Origin: an uncultured virus (IMG/VR IMGVR_UViG_3300032295_003347)
Taxonomy: Duplodnaviria > Heunggongvirae > Uroviricota > Caudoviricetes
Strand: one strand, 5' to 3'
Virus record (IMG/VR): IMGVR_UViG_3300032295_003347
DNA length: 64,000 nt
In this document: one piece after another, positions 4,901 through 61,006 of the stretch
Numbering within the stretch: position 1 is the stretch's first letter
Layout of the letters: each line of letters starts with the position of its first letter
Notes under the pieces: generated by a model
The model's input: only the letters and a program-made list of their open reading frames with translations
Told to the model about the DNA's origin: nothing
Database searches by the model: none
Made by a program: the position numbers and the translations under genes

Positions 4901-5334
4901 AATCGGCGGGGTACCAGGGAAGTCAAGAAGAGTTTTACAGTGACTTCATGCCCGATGCCACAGAAGAAGATAAGAAAATTTTCCAAACTGTTTACAGTGG
5001 CAAGGCGCCCAGTGAACTTTATAAATTCAAGCCGACAGGAGATCCTTTTGCGGATATTGGTCAACTCGAAAGTTTGTCTTCGTTTGGCGAAGAAGAAAAA
5101 CCTAAGAAGGAAACGCCTAAAGCGACAGAACCTAAAAGCAAATACTTTTCTTTCTTCCCAGATGAAGATACACAAGAAGAGGAAGAAGAACCAAGTTCTC
5201 CAGTTAAAATTAAGAAAGGTAGTGATATTCTTTCGGAATTTAAATCACGTTTAAATCTTTCTCCTACCGCAGGTAAGAAGAGTCCATCTGATTTGTCCGA
5301 TCCTTTTTCTAGTTCTTTCTTTGGTTCTTTCTAA
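1945..5334 (+). CDS. Large hypothetical protein, probably virion-associated
   Basis: 1129-aa ORF; internal repeat WxxYDDAYxTL...(P)xDY; acidic C-terminus. Confidence 0.7.
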   Translation: MSISYDAGQNKWDIQYQSENNPLVDKVSIKRKVPNWGYVNYGSKGAGVGITGYTEKTATVDVNGGYWDVINALNAAGIPNPEPWEAENALKTEQATARSNNAASIKKNEEAAKVNSLYRTIDTYAKAAKPGMYLDAKKAIDNSNVDDAIKKNAKTAFNSFYTTKVVSPWDTSSGAKVPFEGFENTIRFNPEYYGGTTSGKSAKEAWDNAVKNEDLDILGRYPNYEAYALWHYSNIGQNEAKKKGERDPGFKPLTPTDGFEYGKVEESVPGKTDAARQFERDKIATDILGLKQTTEGYQLRDIASQYRNLVTSNAQLKDQWSTAKSEILYSERFPKEAKQPWAKLYEAVKEATGAEPEIQSEAGFGELLTKAYQLDSDQYPGAQKLIKDIQANKEIKAVDTKLSEYDTALTKVAGEAEAKQTERAAVFQKQFLEDSRRALIEAKKAEQKFDLLSGTSFGQEILGMRENIANSILQESGVGGILSLGGQQKDDLAKKFNLSLDTGKVFGSNNGLLYNWEKWFFDEIEKKYAGDLDVPNDYVPGYQRNIGNGFVTEEQVKSWKQYDDAYETLKKDPGNISAQQKVNAANLPKDYVPVDKRKTTKQEWIDYEAARRAKGWVDNDTLAKWSDYDDAYKTLNSPTATQQEKQKAQNIYNNKPADYLEPDKRIDSDIQFAQDFFNDYLLPRFNASKSISEFRDYINVDKDKQNIFQTEDRLQSLKNAAESASVSWMKALDSLGTSKFNSDYYFDPGKYYLEKGVGTEGKSPVLLGDQFQKEWGSTIPDQYIKQKTDIANDWEKAKAGEITKDDNGNDINWQAKAYLYGFDVNNKEDFAKLHYEVLGQARQYDSAPDVFNPRIAQIYLKQVLTPYLADKYAKIGTVFGQFVNPEEFADEFVNKLDPLKNKEQTEKVLKLYGLDPNTEDLTQLKKMISDGIRSSDALDIREQIKKLNQESETPTQELLGVEYIQRASDKREEDAKVDDALFNRFKSAGYQGSQEEFYSDFMPDATEEDKKIFQTVYSGKAPSELYKFKPTGDPFADIGQLESLSSFGEEEKPKKETPKATEPKSKYFSFFPDEDTQEEEEEPSSPVKIKKGSDILSEFKSRLNLSPTAGKKSPSDLSDPFSSSFFGSF

Positions 5335-28465: not shown

Positions 28466-28588
28466 TTGATAGAGGTCAGGTCCCTGGCTAGATACGCCTG
28501 GTTAACTCACAGCCCGATTGTCGGTACGCTAGTCACACCTGATCCATCAACACCCCCTATGCCTCTCAACGATGCACAAACCTGGGGG
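28466..28588 (+). ncRNA. Putative structured non-coding RNA(s)
   Basis: Follows TGTATAAT; helices TTGAT..GGTCAGGT/ACCTGATCCATCAA, TGGCTAG/CTAGTCA, CCCCC/GGGGG; no ORF. Confidence 0.5.
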
Positions 28589-28592
28589 TCAC

Positions 28593-28664
28593 TCAACCGG
28601 TAGTCCAGTGGCAGGACACCCCGACAAGGGAGTTGAATAGCTGGTTCGATTCCAGCACGGTTGA
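28593..28664 (+). ncRNA. tRNA-like RNA with degenerate anticodon arm
   Basis: TCAACCG/CGGTTGA acceptor, GTCC-AGTGGCA-GGAC D arm, GCTGG-TTCGATT-CCAGC T arm; no canonical anticodon stem. Confidence 0.7.
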
Positions 28665-28671
28665 TTTAATT

Positions 28672-49609: not shown

Positions 49610-49682
49610 TACCTGGCGTCGGATTCGAACCGACACTGAACGGAGCTTAAATCCGTGGCCTCTTCCGTTGGGCTAGCCAGGC
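49610..49682 (-). tRNA. tRNA-Leu(UAA), short variable arm, no encoded CCA
   Basis: GCCTGGC/GCCAGGT acceptor, ACGGA-TTTAAGC-TCCGT anticodon arm, GTCGG-TTCGAAT-CCGAC T arm. Confidence 0.85.
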
Positions 49683-52766: not shown

Positions 52767-53132
52767 TCATTTGTTGTAGTCTAATACTTTTTCAAGCATG
52801 TCAATAATATCTAAGACAACCTTTGAGGTTTCTGAGGTTAGATGTTGGTCTAGCATGGAACGCTTTGCTTCACGTGCAGTGACATTCTTAAGGATAGACC
52901 GTGCCTCTTCTAGGTGCACATATTCATTCTGATGTATCTCAAACTTAACTAACAATGCTTCTACTTCTGCTAATGCAACAGGTCCAATATGCTTTATGTT
53001 CAAAATATTCTTTGGCTCAAGGTTGATAATGTCTTGAATAGTGTTCAAGCCACCTCGGTACAAAGCGCATTTTGTCCTCATACTCAGATTAGGACAATCA
53101 ATAATTTCTGTTTGTAAAGTACAGAGTTTCAT
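52767..53132 (-). CDS. RNA polymerase alpha-CTD-like domain protein
   Basis: LSMRTKCAL.R.GL.TIQDI.......IL.IKHIGPVAL.EV...L. Confidence 0.75.
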   Translation of the reverse strand: MKLCTLQTEIIDCPNLSMRTKCALYRGGLNTIQDIINLEPKNILNIKHIGPVALAEVEALLVKFEIHQNEYVHLEEARSILKNVTAREAKRSMLDQHLTSETSKVVLDIIDMLEKVLDYNK

Positions 53133-53934: not shown

Positions 53935-54026
53935 TGAGTAGGATCACCCCATTGTGGGGTGATTGATAGTACGGAGGTACTTCTTCTACTTGGAATCCTA
54001 ATAACCGTTGTTTATCAAGAAAACAA

Positions 54027-54242
54027 CTAAGCCTCTTCCTCCTTAACAGCCTTTACCTGTGGTGCTGGCTGTTGCAGAGGGGGCCGGGGGGTTGAATCAA
54101 AGATGATGCCACTAGTCTTAGTCGGAATACCAATGGTTACATCTGTTCCATCCTTGGAGATGGAGATAATAACCTTGTTGTTCCTGGTAATCACTGAGAC
54201 GTGATCAGGGTTGGCAACATCAAATTGATTGAGGAGTTCCAT
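54027..54242 (-). CDS. Hypothetical protein
   Basis: 71-aa ORF with CAACTCC leader. Confidence 0.55.
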   Translation of the reverse strand: MELLNQFDVANPDHVSVITRNNKVIISISKDGTDVTIGIPTKTSGIIFDSTPRPPLQQPAPQVKAVKEEEA

Positions 54243-56200: not shown

Positions 56201-56422
56201 TCAGGAAGGTTGAGCGATGCTTTGGTAGTAGTCAGACATAGCAATGACAAGTTCCTTGGTCCTACATGGGATACCTCCCATGAGTGTCTGGGATTCACGG
56301 TCGATCCAATCAGGATCTCCCTTGTAGTCATCTACTTGCACCTGGTAGTGGAGCATGGTTGATTCCCCACCATGCCAGGTGATGCGCTCAGTCGCGCCTT
56401 CGTAGGGATAATAGCAGAGCAT
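56201..56422 (-). CDS. Hypothetical protein
   Basis: 73-aa ORF with CAACTCA leader. Confidence 0.55.
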   Translation of the reverse strand: MLCYYPYEGATERITWHGGESTMLHYQVQVDDYKGDPDWIDRESQTLMGGIPCRTKELVIAMSDYYQSIAQPS

Positions 56423-56503
56423 TGAGTTGAGCTCGGTAGGTTTGATAACAGGATGTTGAGTCCTGTTGAGGGGACCGTAGTCCCCAGAGCAGGAGTCAGT
56501 TGA

Positions 56504-56662
56504 TCACTTAGTTGGATACTTAGCTTGTTTCGGCATGATCATATTGGCCAGCATGACGCGACCAACAGTGATTGCTTTGCCAATCTTCTCCTTGCTACGG
56601 TCTTGTTCCAAAGCCTTGGCAGCTTTGTTGAGACCAGATGCGACGGATTTACGGATGGACAT
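56504..56662 (-). CDS. Small basic protein
   Basis: MSIRKSVASG start after element E4. Confidence 0.55.
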   Translation of the reverse strand: MSIRKSVASGLNKAAKALEQDRSKEKIGKAITVGRVMLANMIMPKQAKYPTK

Positions 56663-56738
56663 GTTGCGTTGGATGACCACTCTCAGTGAGTGGTAATAAC
56701 TGGACCAGGGTTTGCACCTGGTCACCCGCTTAGACGGA

Positions 56739-56906
56739 TCAGTTGTCAGTAACCAGCATTTGCACTGGTACTGCAGAGATGATGTAATGTTCATCATCAA
56801 GGTCATCTACTGAACGCACATAATGCTCAGCAGCTTCCCTGGTACCGTACACTCCACAGAAGTGAGAAGCGTACGGATCTTCAAGCATGACAACGTAAAC
56901 GTTCAT
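56739..56906 (-). CDS. Hypothetical protein (55 aa)
   Basis: Read manually: MNVYVVMLEDPYASHFCGVYGTREAAEHYV... Confidence 0.6.
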   Translation of the reverse strand: MNVYVVMLEDPYASHFCGVYGTREAAEHYVRSVDDLDDEHYIISAVPVQMLVTDN

Positions 56907-56991
56907 GACTTGACCTAAACTGTGCGGTGCCTATCTCCGCTGGAGGCAATACTGAGTGGAGGGTTTGACCCTCCGGCATCACGCCTGGTAC

Positions 56992-57183
56992 TCAGTTAGT
57001 CTTGTATCCGTTAGCTGCGCACCAGGCCATGTGGACCTCGTGTGCTTGCTTAGGCCAATCGTGGCTAGCACATTGCTTTGCTGTCGCTTGATCTAGTTGA
57101 TGGATCGTCACTTGCGTGCTGATCCCAACTAGTATCGCTGCGCCACAGATGATTGGAGCTACGTCGGGGAATTGATACTTCAT
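56992..57183 (-). CDS. Small membrane/secreted-type protein
   Basis: TM helix; QC.SHDWP...H..H.AWC..NGY. Confidence 0.65.
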   Translation of the reverse strand: MKYQFPDVAPIICGAAILVGISTQVTIHQLDQATAKQCASHDWPKQAHEVHMAWCAANGYKTN

Positions 57184-57267
57184 GGTGTTGAGTTGATGTG
57201 CGGTACCCATCTCCGCTGAGGGTAATGACTGGGCAGGGGTTTGCACCCTGCCTCCCGCTTAAACGGA

Positions 57268-57564
57268 TCAGTCTGTAGGCTCAAGGGCGTGGGTGTAGCA
57301 GAGCCAGCGCTCCAGTACATCCTTGCGCTTACCCCGGACCTTATAAACAACTTCGCCATCCTCGATCCATTGACCGATGATGTACCAATCAGTTTCTGGC
57401 TTCTGTGCCACTGTGGTGGCCCAGTCCAGTACATCAGATTGGTTGTACATTGTCCAGGTCTGCCATCCTTTAGCCCTTGCTTCCTGTGCAGCTTTCTCTG
57501 CAAGCCTGTTGCAAGTCACCTCGCGACCCGACAGACGAGTGCGGCGAATCTCCTTGGTTACCAT
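57268..57564 (-). CDS. Hypothetical protein, first gene of early block
   Basis: 98-aa ORF between elements E1 and E2. Confidence 0.65.
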   Translation of the reverse strand: MVTKEIRRTRLSGREVTCNRLAEKAAQEARAKGWQTWTMYNQSDVLDWATTVAQKPETDWYIIGQWIEDGEVVYKVRGKRKDVLERWLCYTHALEPTD

Positions 57565-57654
57565 TGAACTGAACTCAGGTGTGTGGTGCCTATCTCCACG
57601 GGAGGCAATCGCTGAAGCAGGGATTTGATCCCCGGCTCACGCCTTGTCTTCAGC

Positions 57655-58320
57655 TAAGCATCTACAGTCACAATCAGTTCTCGCTCCAGTAAAGTGTAGG
57701 CGAGCTATAATTGGGAGCTTTAGGTGGGGGCTTGGGGTGTGCTGACGTTACGGTTAGGTTACGGTTAGGAAACCCTAACTTACTAAGTGCGAATCTTCAC
57801 ACTCTCTTAACCTTTCAACGTAGTCAGGGTCGGGTGGGTGGGCGGCCCGCAGGGCCTAACGTAGTCAGGCAACCTGCTCTTACGCCCAATCTCCCTACGC
57901 TCTCCCCTCCTACTAAACTTTCACACCCCTCACCCTTTCTTTTTTCTATACACATCCTCTCTCGGGTGGGTGGGTGGAGAAGCGTTTAGTTACTAATAAC
58001 CCAAATGGGGTTGAAACTTGGCGCCTGCCAAAGGCGCTGCAAATACTACAAATATGTAATTTAAAAAGTAGGTTAGGTAAAGTACCAAAGATCAAAAAAT
58101 TCAAATTTACAATAAAACAAACAACGGTAAACACTAGAAAGTAACCGATTATACATAAAGTACAAACGGTGGATTCCCCTGGAACGCTCCTAAAAATATT
58201 TACGGCAAATTATTTAAATTTCAAAACACACAAAAAAATAAAACCCCTAAATGGGGCTAGAAATTATGATAAAAATGTAATGAAGTACCCTAGTTAGCCC
58301 AAGTTTTTAGCCAAAATCCC
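57655..58320. other. Long non-coding region upstream of the early block; candidate terminus/packaging/promoter region
   Basis: No credible ORF; G-tracts, short repeats, AT-rich right half. Confidence 0.5.
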
Positions 58321-58327
58321 CTATTGG

Positions 58328-58558
58328 TTACTTATTTTTCCTTACTTGGCGGGCCGCAGCGCGGGCAGCCTTACGAAATGCTTCTTCATCAGGGTGTTGA
58401 AACGCAAGTTGCTTAGCACCTTCGTTAATAAATCCACGAACGGTGAAAGCATCAGCCCCTTCAGACGCCATTTTTTCGGCACGGGACTTAATTGCCTCTA
58501 ACCCTTCTACTTTTTTGACCTGATCTTGAAGATCCATAGGGATCTTTACCCGATTCAT
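58328..58558 (-). CDS. Hypothetical protein
   Basis: Helical ORF. Confidence 0.55.
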   Translation of the reverse strand: MNRVKIPMDLQDQVKKVEGLEAIKSRAEKMASEGADAFTVRGFINEGAKQLAFQHPDEEAFRKAARAAARQVRKNK

Positions 58559-58645
58559 CAACTTTTTACTACTATACAACAAATATTTTTAGGTTTTTGT
58601 CGCATAGAATAAATCAAAGACCAAACATAGTGAGTAATAACCCAA

Positions 58646-61006
58646 ATGTTGCTGTCTCCCGCTGATTTTGACGCTTATTCTCGGGCAACAGGGCGTCCAG
58701 TACCAGAAGAACCGGAGGAAAGAGCCCGCCTGGTACCTGAAGTCTCTGAGTTTCGCCGTAATCAGCTCAAGTCACCCGAAACACAACGTAGTGAGGGCTC
58801 TGGTCTCCTTCAAGCCCTTGGTATTGGTGCAGCGGTACTTGGTGGCGGGGCATTATTAGCGCGTGGCTTGGGCCGGAGGGGCGGCATTCGGATGGGCAAC
58901 GCCCAACAGGCGGCAAAAGAGGCAGTACAAGAAGTTACAGTTCAAGATCTTGGGAATGTATACCGTGCGGCGGGGCGTCCTGCACCTTCTCGCCCTGCTC
59001 CTACACCAACTCCTACGCAGCGTACCGCGTCTACACCAGATCCGTGGGCTGCTTCGGTGACGACTACACCGGCAGCTACTACTCGTCCGGCAACTACACC
59101 TACACCTACGCAGCGTACCGCAGGTTCCAGGCAAGGTGGTGTTCAAGTAACCAACCTATACGATCTTGCAAACCTTAAATCGGAAAATTTACGTCGTGCA
59201 CCTGAAACCTTAAGTGAAGCCGCTCAATCTTTAAGTAGCCAAGATTTTATTTCTGACTATTTCAAGCGTACGGCTACACCTGCAGGTGCTTTGACTAGTG
59301 CCGCTGATGATATTGCCGCAGTCGAAAAAGTTATTCCCGAATCCCTGGTAACCAAACAACAAACTATTGGTGGACGGATTGCGGATCAAACTGCAAACGC
59401 AATTGATTCGGCAGAAGACCAGATGACTGGTCGTGTCAAATCTCAACTGCAACGCAACGAAGATCTCGACATCAGTCAGATCGACGCGCTTGAAGAAATG
59501 GCGGAACAAGACCATAATTGGATGATGGAGCAGGATGAGCCCATCAACCGTGTGGCAGCGCAACTGCCCGATGGCTTACCTGTTGATCAGGCAGAAGGTC
59601 TGGCAAAGTCAAGCGCCCAAAGCTTCCTGCAGCGTGAACGGGATGAAATTGCATCTCTCTTAGGAGAGCAAAATATTCCAGCAACTAATACACGTATTGA
59701 GCAAGAACTTAATCGCCGTCTTGGTAAAGAAGCTTCTGAGTATGGCCCTAAGTACACGGCTCGTCGTCAAGCTCTTGAACTTTATGCAAAAACAGGTGAT
59801 CCTCAACTTTTAGAAAAAGTACGACGATTTGGTTTATCACCCGTTACTTTTGAAACGGTGGAAGGAATGCCGGCAGCAAAACGAGCTGGTTTTGAATCTG
59901 CTCCTGCAATGTCCTTGGATTATTACCCAAGTGAAGAGTTGACTGCTGTAGGTCTAAGCTCTAGCCAAAACATTAATCTTCCTGGAGTCGGTAACGTATC
60001 TCTTGCCGACATTAGGCGTCCCGTTGTTACTGAAAGCACTGCTCAACAAGCCGAAGAATTTTATCAAGGACGCAAAGGTAAAGCACTTGATTGGCTTGGA
60101 GAAAAGAGAGTTGAGCTGGAGCCCAAGCGTAATCAAATTCTAAAAGAACGTCAGTTACTTGCTCAGCAAAGTGCCAACCAACTTATTCCGCAACTTAATG
60201 AAGCAAAAGCAACAGGACAGTTTGATAAAGCTAAAGAGCTTGAATTTAGCTTGAATACGCTTCGCAACTTATACAGGAATCCAAGACTTGGTACGCACCG
60301 TGAAGGTGAGCTCAGGTCTCTTGATGCACGTATTGCTAAAGCACAGAATAAAATTGCAGGAGATATTGCAACTATTCAAAAACGGTACCCAACAACTATT
60401 GAAGACTGGTCTGGAGAAGCACCTCGTTTATTTGCAGAGTTAGATCCAGATACCGGTGAAATTATTCCCGAAACCGTGGAGCTACGTACAGAACGTCCCA
60501 TGGTAGACCTGGAGCCTAAAGGTGGTGGTGGGCGAAATGTTGCTGAGTTTGCTGCTGGCTCACGTAGTGCGACAGAAAATGCTATCCGTGAAGTTCAACA
60601 AGGTGGTCGACGTACTAGGGTTCGTGACTTTGATATTGAAACCGGTGGCGCAGTTCAAAACTTTGAAGATGATCGCACTCAAACAGGAAGAGTAATTGGT
60701 CGCTACGGCATTCAACCAAGTGGCGAAAAACCTGCAGATACTACAAAACGTCCTTCACTGCCTAGGTACACACAAGAAGAAATTCTTTCCACTGCACTTG
60801 AAAATGCACAGGCTGATCCATATGGAGACGTGCCTCTTCCTCCTGATTACGAAGAGATAATGGCAATTCTTGGCACAAAAGAAAAACCGTCAAATCGCCA
60901 AAATATTCGCGCTTCTGAAGATATACTTAGGATACAAAGATCTGCCCCTCCTGGCAAAGCACAAGCACTTGTTAACCAATACTTGAATAACTTACGCGGA
61001 GCTTGA
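58646..61006 (+). CDS. Large hypothetical protein, probable internal virion protein
   Basis: 786 aa; N-terminal hydrophobic Gly segment, Pro/Thr repeats, coiled coil. Confidence 0.7.
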   Translation: MLLSPADFDAYSRATGRPVPEEPEERARLVPEVSEFRRNQLKSPETQRSEGSGLLQALGIGAAVLGGGALLARGLGRRGGIRMGNAQQAAKEAVQEVTVQDLGNVYRAAGRPAPSRPAPTPTPTQRTASTPDPWAASVTTTPAATTRPATTPTPTQRTAGSRQGGVQVTNLYDLANLKSENLRRAPETLSEAAQSLSSQDFISDYFKRTATPAGALTSAADDIAAVEKVIPESLVTKQQTIGGRIADQTANAIDSAEDQMTGRVKSQLQRNEDLDISQIDALEEMAEQDHNWMMEQDEPINRVAAQLPDGLPVDQAEGLAKSSAQSFLQRERDEIASLLGEQNIPATNTRIEQELNRRLGKEASEYGPKYTARRQALELYAKTGDPQLLEKVRRFGLSPVTFETVEGMPAAKRAGFESAPAMSLDYYPSEELTAVGLSSSQNINLPGVGNVSLADIRRPVVTESTAQQAEEFYQGRKGKALDWLGEKRVELEPKRNQILKERQLLAQQSANQLIPQLNEAKATGQFDKAKELEFSLNTLRNLYRNPRLGTHREGELRSLDARIAKAQNKIAGDIATIQKRYPTTIEDWSGEAPRLFAELDPDTGEIIPETVELRTERPMVDLEPKGGGGRNVAEFAAGSRSATENAIREVQQGGRRTRVRDFDIETGGAVQNFEDDRTQTGRVIGRYGIQPSGEKPADTTKRPSLPRYTQEEILSTALENAQADPYGDVPLPPDYEEIMAILGTKEKPSNRQNIRASEDILRIQRSAPPGKAQALVNQYLNNLRGA

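Follow-up and report, generated by a model that had tools for sequence, protein, structure and literature searches.

Cassettes of a tRNA-like junction and a pseudoknot or hairpin between the early genes of S-EIVl-like phages: a new structured RNA family with a possible part in message processing

What are the structured elements that stand in front of the first minus-strand genes of an uncultured virus of the Caudoviricetes, and what do they do there? The stretch analysed here, called the window, is the 64,000-nucleotide IMG/VR record IMGVR_UViG_3300032295_003347, in which a divergent non-coding region of about 1 kb is followed by four small minus-strand open reading frames (ORFs), each with a two-part cassette in front of it. 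By its DNA polymerase, which shares 72% identity with the enzyme of Synechococcus phage S-EIVl (next-best match 42-43%), the window is a member of the lineage of that phage, whose host, Synechococcus sp. PCCC-A2c, is a cyanobacterium. A preliminary description had read the elements as tRNA mimics joined to pseudoknots, at which host RNase P and RNase Z would separate the early messages. We find that the cassettes form a structured RNA family, both new and widespread, that belongs to the S-EIVl-like phage lineage. Some processing or stabilising role at the RNA level is probable; that they act as punctuation at which RNase Z cuts the early transcript into single-gene messages is a serious but tentative possibility, drawn from comparison of sequences.

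On the minus strand, cassettes 1 to 4 span 57654-57583, 57273-57200, 56996-56924 and 56744-56676. Each opens with module 1, a three-way junction of 44-47 nt whose closing stem encloses a short side hairpin and a GC-rich stem capped by a 7-nt loop; the 3' strand of the GC-rich stem continues directly into that of the closing stem. Two designs are present. In class B, cassette 1 (57611..57654) pairs GCUGAAG with CUUCAGC (7 bp) around the mini-hairpin GGC-GUGA-GCC and the stem CGGGG/CCCUG (5 bp, loop AUCAAAU), and cassette 3 (56951..56996) pairs ACUGAGU with ACUCAGU (7 bp) around GGC-GUGAU-GCC and GGAGG/CCUCC (5 bp, loop GUCAAAC). Class A comprises cassette 2 (57227..57273), with GACUG/CAGUC (5 bp), CCG-UUUAAG-CGG and GGCAGGG/CCCUGCC (7 bp, loop UGCAAAC), and cassette 4 (56698..56744), with AACUG/CAGUU (5 bp), CCG-UCUAAG-CGG and GACCAGG/CCUGGUC (7 bp, loop UGCAAAC). 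Together, the closing and the loop-capped stem make 12 pairs in every cassette (7+5, 5+7, 7+5, 5+7).

Scanned on both strands by a rule that required a loop NKCRANN, 12 continuous pairs and a junction of 2-25 nt, the 64 kb yielded the four cassettes, one weak plus-strand match at 53988-54032 and nothing more; 30 first-order Markov randomisations gave a mean of 0.43 matches and a maximum of 1. The minimum-energy structures computed with RNAfold recovered the three-way junction in all four cassettes, and module 1 alone had z-scores of −3.08 (minimum free energy −19.1), −3.24, −4.15 and −3.33 in cassettes 1 to 4. The minus-strand reading, the scan and the folds bear out the earlier observation that four minus-strand elements share a common architecture. 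Covariance models of class A (R1) and class B (R2), whose seeds include the window copies, scored cassettes 2 and 4 at 78.2 and 79.5 bits (R1) and cassettes 1 and 3 at 57.2 and 73.7 bits (R2), all four being seed sequences; with filters off, neither model found a further copy in the window below an E-value of 0.3.

Module 2 follows a linker of AU or AUU (GAUU in cassette 1), a gap of 2-4 nt depending on how the invariant U-A pair of pseudoknot stem 1 is counted, which corrects the 1-2 nt given previously. Three cassettes carry a pseudoknot at this place: UGCCU/AGGCA crossed with GUGG/CCAC in cassette 1 (57583..57610 with its linker G-AUU; knot 57607-57583), UACCC/GGGUA crossed with GCGG/CCGC in cassette 2 (57200..57226 with AUU; knot 57224-57200) and UGCCU/AGGCA crossed with GCGG/CCGC in cassette 3 (56924..56950 with AUU; knot 56948-56924). 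In cassette 4 its place is taken, as had already been noticed, by a related 7-bp hairpin, ACCACUC-ACUGA-GAGUGGU (56694-56676; 56676..56697 with AUU), and the S-EIVl orthologue reads ACCACCC-ACUAA-GGGUGGU, a compensatory change. The pseudoknot has the crossed ABA'B' topology with loops of 3 nt, 4 nt (AGAU) and 0-1 nt. It lacks the classical H-type geometry, in which a middle loop of 0-1 nt is followed by a third loop spanning stem 1, and with these loop lengths classical coaxial stacking is impossible. What holds of the H-type pseudoknot first described in three copies is thus its pair of crossed stems, both with covariation, and not the classical coaxial geometry.

The linker is the most conserved sequence of the cassette. 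After class A elements its positions and the next three read A in 68, U in 72, U in 71, R in 73, C in 69 and C in 69 of 73 sequences, and each position of the hexamer A-U-U-R-C-C is 93-100% conserved, whether a class A or a class B element precedes it. The two positions past the unpaired linker A are never C, and almost all module 2 sequences open with RCC straight after AUU. Beyond that, the second module varies: after class A elements it is a pseudoknot in 34 and another hairpin in 43 of 77 unique sequences, an interchange which suggests that any stable 5'-terminal structure suffices.

Two exact-pattern scans of viral metagenome contigs revealed how widely the cassettes recur; their counts are of the matches listed and are lower bounds. 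The first, anchored on the class A side hairpin, gave at least 80 unique genuine cassettes among at least 119 stretches, one chance match that had passed the stem filter being dropped. The second, anchored on the pseudoknot core, gave at least 183 matches at at least 123 loci and at least 152 unique cassettes, and the 5' strand of pseudoknot stem 1, which lies outside the search pattern, was complementary in 182 of the 183 viral matches listed. In 79 related loci (376 kb), R1 and R2 found 157 and 64 copies. Among 50,697 deposited phage records, blastn with the 1.8-kb region and two single cassettes identified S-EIVl as the sole record with similar cassettes, one of the single-cassette queries finding no match in these records; S-EIVl has two cassettes, both of class A and located at about 43.4-43.8 kb of its record, with compensatory changes relative to the window in every stem.

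Cellular genomes were scanned at one genome per species (185,579 prokaryote species, 596 Gb). Here the pseudoknot pattern occurred 62 times, with a tRNA-like context in only two cases, L269 and L301, both short contigs of metagenome-assembled genomes; at another cellular occurrence (L248), stem 1 alone could be read from the flanks. This near-absence marks the cassette as a viral and not a host feature, and makes the cellular matches a chance control. In the GC-rich viral contigs L214 and L215, the same pseudoknot core stands after another hairpin, GACCCGAG-loop-CUCGGGUC, and has no tRNA-like element; the pseudoknot module is therefore spread more widely than module 1.

The family matches none described so far in the sources compared. 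Against Rfam 15 at the gathering score, the window gave only abiF and tRNA, both away from the cassettes; no family was placed at the cassettes by a scan of 56300-58100 at E≤10 either, and 12 related loci (62 kb) scanned at the gathering score returned no match. Riboswitches and self-cleaving ribozymes, whose families are included in the Rfam library scanned, gave no match, and the varied junction sequences would argue against a single catalytic core. No description of the cassette was found in the literature searched. tRNA-like candidates also appear in a 2023 survey that covers some 10,000 candidate viral RNAs; in the passages compared, none could be matched to the cassette (PMC10690425).

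Covariation extends over all main stems; the counts below are of sequences, many of them close relatives, and not of independent events. In class A module 1 (73 sequences, 1095 cells, with the side hairpin fixed by the search pattern) 97.9% of cells are paired and 10 of the 15 pairs change on both sides. Within its 7-bp stem 99.8% of cells are paired, and single positions show as many as five pair types. None of 500 shuffles reached the class A score, and slid controls paired at 28-55%. The class A copies found by the model in the pseudoknot-anchored loci, an alignment of 134 distinct rows fitted to that model, are 98.1% paired, with 13 of 15 pairs covarying, two of these in the side hairpin. 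Class B was aligned in sets of 32 and 56 distinct rows. Pairing is complete (100%) in its loop-capped stem, where 4-5 pairs covary; in the closing stem it reaches 81-84%, a figure lowered in part by misaligned variants with an enlarged junction, and the mini-hairpin displays little covariation. The pseudoknot, in 37 sequences (329 cells) taken after class A elements and thus free of any constraint from its own search pattern, is 98.8% paired, and again none of 500 shuffles reached its score. Stem 1 has two covarying pairs (G:C/A:U 11, C:G/U:A 10), as has stem 2 (C:G/U:A 7, G:C/A:U 2), in which two 5-bp variants were misaligned by MAFFT. In class A, G.U cells far outnumber A.C cells (83:7 and 37:5), which places the fold in the RNA of the gene strand.

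That module 1 resembles a tRNA by shape and not by sequence is well supported by comparison of the relatives. Of the 152 copies listed, 115 have a 3' strand of 12 nt from loop to linker and 21 have one of 13 nt. Closing and loop-capped stems total 12 pairs in 116 of 126 parsed copies, divided as 5+7 (72), 7+5 (24), 8+4 (13) and 6+6 (7), although the tolerant parse still mis-partitions some copies (the 8+4 group). The loop follows NKCRANN, the commonest forms among the matches listed being UGCAAAC (56), AUCGAAU (22), UGCAAUG (11), UGCAACU (7), UUCGAUU (7), AUCAAAU (6) and UUCGACU (5), and canonical T-loops occur among these matches as UUCGAUU (7), UUCGACU (5) and UUCAAUC (2). Almost every loop retains C56, R57 and A58 of the T-loop. 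U54 is present in class A, though followed by G55; in class B, position 54 is A or G and is complementary to position 60; and the canonical forms UUCGAnU or UUCAAnn occur in classes C, D and others. The window loops GGGAUCAAAUCCC, GGGUGCAAACCCC and GGGUCAAACCC do not match the motif GGTTCRANYCC of plant t-elements, and some relatives carry GGUUCGAUUCC or GGUUCGACUCC.

Several designs of module 1 precede the same pseudoknot: CCG-UNNAAG-CGG in class A, the GNRA-type mini-hairpin GGC-GUGA(U)-GCC in class B, a form that has just an 8-nt bulge (AYGGUGYA) at the junction, together with the canonical arm GGUUCGAYUCC, forms with longer side hairpins, and one class with two side hairpins that amounts to a 56-nt mini-cloverleaf. 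The latter is seen in L131 (2439-2496) and L188 (2194-2251), where an extra AACC-GCAA-GGUU hairpin makes three arms plus the closing stem. Across contigs, each of five downstream gene families, recognised by N-terminal motifs, stands behind 3-5 class labels ('other/none' included); the xDLTxGW family follows class A seven times, class B five times, and A'', C and another class once each. Different classes before the same gene indicate that the classes are functionally equivalent, which fits recognition by shape. RNase P, RNase Z and the CCA-adding enzyme gauge the acceptor/T stack from the tRNA elbow, as passages of PMC4919913 describe. The four window copies have the form of such an acceptor/T minihelix, with about 12 stacked pairs between a T-like loop and an unpaired 3' nucleotide. 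The reading of the elements as tRNA mimics draws support from the T-loops, the 12-nt 3' strands and the class swaps of the relatives; the loops of the window itself are non-canonical. Real tRNA genes are a separate matter: ARAGORN found tRNAs in the window only at 28593-28665 and 49610-49682, none of them at the cassettes, Rfam found a tRNA only at 49610-49682, and no tRNA gene stands next to the pseudoknots in 60 related loci (ARAGORN).

The cassettes are closely fitted to the genes around them. In 97 of the 102 listed cassettes with a T-like hairpin, an upstream ORF of 40 codons or more has its end 20-75 nt ahead of the linker. The upstream stops are TGA in 76, TAA in 17 and TAG in 4, and the modal position (47 of 97) places a TGA inside the closing stem. 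The window follows this pattern at its three internal cassettes, confirming that the upstream TGA starts in the 5' strand of the closing stem. Early ORF 1 (57268..57564, minus strand, 98 aa, no family) starts with an ATG 18 nt past the first pseudoknot and ends with TGA at 57270-57268 in the closing stem of cassette 2; early ORF 2 (56992..57183, minus strand, 63 aa) starts 16 nt past the second and ends at 56994-56992 in that of cassette 3; early ORF 3 (56739..56906, minus strand, 55 aa) starts 17 nt past the third and ends at 56741-56739 in that of cassette 4. Early ORF 4 (56504..56662, minus strand, 52 aa, MSIRKS...) starts 13 nt past the hairpin of cassette 4, and its orthologue in S-EIVl is preceded by the same cassette. 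Cassette 1 has no ORF upstream. The start codons of the window thus lie 13-18 nt past module 2. Among relatives, an ORF of at least 35 codons starts no more than 70 nt past the pseudoknot in 95 of 104 cassettes, and does so at 13-17 nt in 76 of these 95. In related loci, arrays of 4-9 cassettes have a single small ORF between each and mix the classes within an array; the genes beyond the arrays are packed and have no cassettes. The window array runs B-A-B-A and then passes into other hairpins. Pseudoknots also occur singly, 16 of the 152 copies listed having no tRNA-like element, for example at the first array gene in L122.

We propose, as possible though distinctly tentative, that the S-EIVl-like lineage borrows host tRNA maturation, with RNase Z cutting the polycistron to leave CCA-ready 3' ends and pseudoknot 5' caps resistant to RNase J and RNase E. 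Module 1 would represent the 'top half' of a tRNA, in which the closing stem serves as acceptor and stacks on a stem-loop akin to the T arm, about 12 bp in total and with no anticodon arm, and would be bound by host enzymes that read tRNA shape. Host RNase Z, possibly aided by RNase E on the AU-rich trailer, would then cut past the unpaired A of the A-UU linker. The upstream message would retain its stop codon and end in a compact tRNA-like structure, a possible substrate of the CCA-adding enzyme and a barrier to 3' exonucleases. The downstream message would start with pUU, 2-3 nt before a pseudoknot or hairpin shielding the 5' monophosphate from RNase J and RNase E, and module 2 would also fix an unstructured leader of about 15 nt ahead of the start codon.

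Cyanobacterial tRNA genes mostly lack an encoded CCA, so that RNase Z cleavage followed by CCA addition is the normal route to a mature 3' end, and UU before a stable fold offers too little single strand for the 5'-end-dependent action of RNase J or RNase E. Cytidines directly after the discriminator suppress RNase Z, according to parts of PMC7479834. As the trailer starts with UU and never has C at these positions, we count this for an RNase Z cut in the linker. The joint action of RNase P and RNase Z put forward in the preliminary description would fit better as a cut on the 3' side only, and the excision of free mini-tRNAs is disfavoured: since the stop codon mostly lies in the closing stem, a canonical RNase P cut would strip it from most upstream messages.

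Several points tell against a tRNA-maturation mechanism. The window copies lack the canonical GGUUCRANYCC, with G at position 55 in class A and A or G at position 54 in class B. Loop positions 1 and 7 of cassettes 1 and 3 are complementary (A..U, G..C), and RNAfold extends their loop-capped stem to 6-7 bp with a 3-nt loop; when the class B loop closes in this way the helix measures 13-14 bp, so that the 12 bp claimed earlier, parsed in all four copies, hold for cassettes 1 and 3 only if the 7-nt loop stays open in a T-loop fold. One extra nucleotide precedes AUU in 21 of the 152 copies listed, cassette 1 among them, and the first closing-stem pair is often unpaired (20/73 in class A, 31/56 in class B). 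The near-invariant UURCC exceeds what a purely shape-reading enzyme would need; together with the fixed distance to the start codon, it suggests an added sequence-specific or translational role. The two stems of the pseudoknot may fold side by side or may be alternative hairpins, and their constant distance from the start codon speaks for a part in translation no less than for one in protecting ends. The proposed 5' protection is plausible, in that module 2 begins 2-3 nt past the presumed cut and swaps with hairpins, and a ribosome-binding-site role fits the start-codon distance equally well. Finally, the cyanobacterial host assumed for the window phage is inferred solely from its nearest isolate, S-EIVl, by the 72% match in DNA polymerase.

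The alternative that survives best, though we consider it rather unlikely, dispenses with cleavage. The cassette would be a cis-acting insulator and translation element, whose stable plugs hold open a 15-nt leader or a hairpin of start codon and Shine-Dalgarno (SD) sequence for independent initiation, keep upstream ribosomes and helicase activity off the next start region and block scanning nucleases. The leaders speak for this, both through the start distance of 13-17 nt in 76 of 95 and through their own structure. Past the pseudoknot, the relatives display an SD-like motif in 53 leaders, and in 37 of those the start codon lies in a small leader hairpin; the four leaders of the window have no start-codon hairpin and are CA-rich. 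In this hairpin (37 of 95 relatives; for example L122 2519-2540, L123 and L130) the start codon GUG or AUG pairs with CAY just 5' of GGAG, and the pairing covaries between examples such as CAGGAGAUUCCUGUG, CACGGAGAACACCGUG and CAUGGAGAGAUCCAUG. A stop inside the closing stem means that each terminating ribosome must open module 1, and the 16 listed pseudoknots that lack a tRNA-like element count for this alternative as well. Plain hairpins would suffice for all this, however; insulation needs no T-like loop, no constant 3' strand of 12-13 nt over unrelated junctions and no invariant AUU.

Doubtful, to our judgement, is the alternative taken from the preliminary description, in which RNase P and RNase Z, as they separate the messages, release mini-tRNAs of about 45 nt that decoy or soak up host factors which bind tRNA, be they defence nucleases or the enzymes that modify or process tRNA. 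The acceptor/T-stack shape is one that RNase P reads (PMC4919913, in part), arrays of 4-9 in the first transcribed genes would supply many copies early, and the window has another possible decoy RNA, the abiF motif. An RNase P cut would produce early messages without a stop, given the modal TGA in the closing stem (47/97; TGA in 76/97), and an element without an anticodon arm cannot decoy anticodon nucleases. According to PMC1920247, both ends of plant t-elements are cut, with RNase P acting within the nad6 and ccmC reading frames, and stop-less nad6 and ccmC mRNAs exist, which leaves the stop-codon argument against RNase P weighty and not absolute.

Equally doubtful is a nuclease that reads the sequence AUURCC, either host RNase E or a phage endoribonuclease, with the fold acting as 3' stabiliser, folding guide or protein-binding site. 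AUURCC is almost invariant across the classes of both modules, and the early ORFs, which have no known function, leave room for a phage nuclease. RNase E of Synechocystis prefers U at +2 and A at −3/−4, and its inactivation reduces tRNA levels (PMC8682795, from a part of that report). The linker fits this published single-stranded signature, A(−3/−4)...U(+2), only partly: the 3-4 single-stranded nt between stable folds are a short target, and A(−3/−4) falls in the closing stem. No nuclease family was found in the window ORFs (45 scanned against Pfam, 54 against PHROGs), and sequence-specific cleavage leaves the T-like loop and the constant helix length unexplained.

A role at the level of DNA or transcription, as repeated borders at which early gene cassettes would be shuffled more readily (as is reportedly proposed for the promoter/stem-loop cassettes of T4-type phages) or as leaky intrinsic terminators, is very improbable: near-identical modules do stand beside different genes, classes swap at the same gene and the 3' strand ends in U-rich GUUAUU, but the excess of G.U over A.C (83:7, class A) and covariation that preserves pairing and not sequence point to one-strand RNA, the lone terminator match (58258-58242) and the promoter-like site lie away from the cassettes, and gene shuffling may be a mere by-product.

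A precedent for a cut by RNase Z is the t-element of plant mitochondria. According to PMC1920247, t-elements are not tRNAs but combine a stem-loop resembling the T arm with a stem resembling the acceptor; they stand in mRNA precursors at gene borders, like the cassettes, and direct RNase Z and RNase P cuts that form mRNA ends. RNase Z makes the 5' end of the downstream mRNA there, and additions of the CCA type are found on the released leader, so that a precedent exists for RNase Z producing mRNA 5' ends. The t-elements differ in being scattered, cloverleaf-like, about 74 nt long and recognised by GGTTCRANYCC, the conserved motif of their pseudouridine arm (PMC1920247). The cassettes, by contrast, measure 44-47 nt in module 1, have no anticodon arm, form phage arrays, carry a second module and a conserved AUURCC, and are known from sequence alone.

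Vertebrate mascRNA/MEN-beta (RF01684) shares the tRNA-like fold, mascRNA lying at a transcript end where tRNA-processing enzymes read it. It differs as a nuclear cloverleaf with an anticodon-like arm, in which a 5'-side cut ends the upstream RNA. The RF01684 model aligned weakly to the acceptor and T arm of cassette 1, at 20.9 bits (E 0.34) against a cut-off of 42.5, and gave no match to cassettes 2-4 up to E 10. In the tRNA punctuation of animal mitochondria, tRNA-shaped elements likewise lie between the genes of one long transcript; those are working tRNAs cut on both sides, whereas the cassettes are mimics without an anticodon arm and with a stop codon inside. The RNase III sites between the early genes of phage T7 are also structured intergenic elements in the first transcribed phage genes, and their long imperfect duplexes yield stable single-gene messages; the cassettes have in their place a three-way junction with a T-like loop and a pseudoknot. 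In plastids, intercistronic processing similarly gives stable monocistronic mRNAs under a cyanobacterial type of decay with a 5'-3' exonuclease, and a protein bound to the intercistronic expression element defines, caps and protects the mRNA ends, a service that in the cassettes an RNA fold would perform. Flavivirus exoribonuclease-resistant RNAs (xrRNAs) protect ends with a junction and a pseudoknot, and plant-virus tRNA-like structures are tRNA mimics at 3' ends; both belong to RNA genomes in eukaryotic hosts, and no model of either matched the cassettes in the Rfam scans.

mRNA processing signals shaped like tRNA have been described in organelles and in a few long RNAs of vertebrates, and no systematic bacterial or phage use of them was found in the literature searched. 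The present family is large and rich in covariation: its unique cassettes number at least 152, its several architectures are interchangeable, its arrays hold as many as nine copies, and it belongs to the first-expressed phage genes. If the cut is true, a phage without its own RNA polymerase or RNase would make stable single-gene messages from one early transcript, a natural counterpart of engineered tRNA-spaced gene arrays, and a 45-nt tRNA mimic with a 25-nt pseudoknot cap would be a part for cyanobacterial synthetic biology. If the tRNA-maturation reading as a whole is true, this would be a viral counterpart, in the bacterial world and by RNA alone, of mitochondrial tRNA punctuation and of xrRNA-type protection. 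Even without a cut, the cassettes present a new structured RNA whose pseudoknot geometry is unusual, and they provide, for RNase P, RNase Z and the CCA-adding enzyme, a natural set of 'minimal tRNA shapes'.

The surroundings of the array contain few transcription signals. No consensus promoter and no terminator was found at the cassettes in 56300-58700, the cassettes lacking the GC-rich hairpin plus U run of an intrinsic terminator; the sole terminator-like site of this region is the one at 58258-58242. Its sole sigma-70-like promoter match, TTGAAA-18-AATATT (58195..58224, minus strand), lies about 540 nt upstream of cassette 1 and, by this consensus match only, is a possible start of the early transcript. 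An 11-mer, CTGACTACGTT, has two exact copies on the minus strand of the non-coding region upstream of cassette 1 (57817-57827 and 57858-57868), five matches in the window with one mismatch allowed (0.84 expected) and also two copies in the corresponding S-EIVl region (L001, about 2150-2195); it may be a regulator-binding, promoter or origin motif. All the early ORFs are of unknown function in the Pfam and PHROGs scans. Past early ORF 4, at 56500-56425 (minus strand), the hairpins GGGGAC-UACG-GUCCCC, with a UNCG-type loop, and AACAGGA-CUCAACA-UCCUGUU follow in place of a cassette.

Further structured RNAs lie elsewhere in the window. A real tRNA-Leu(UAA) at 49610-49682 (minus strand) stands directly behind an ORF in the same minus-strand gene string, and its maturation would by itself cut the long transcript. 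It is followed at 49609-49560 by a long hairpin, ACUGGGCAUCC...AAGUCCCAGU, which is shared with S-EIVl (L001, about 5020-5065). On the plus strand, an abiF RNA motif (RF03085) at 28553-28589 scores 52.2 bits against a cut-off of 37, and this phage-borne copy could be an anti-defence decoy or an antitoxin mimic. Three nucleotides past it lies an odd tRNA-like gene (28593-28665, plus strand), to which ARAGORN assigns a 2-nt 'anticodon' and which has a canonical GGUUCGAUUCC arm. A 121-aa ORF among the early and middle genes (52767-53132, minus strand) has a Pfam match (PF03118, E 1e-6) to the C-terminal domain of the alpha subunit of bacterial RNA polymerase and is a possible mimic or modifier of the host enzyme.

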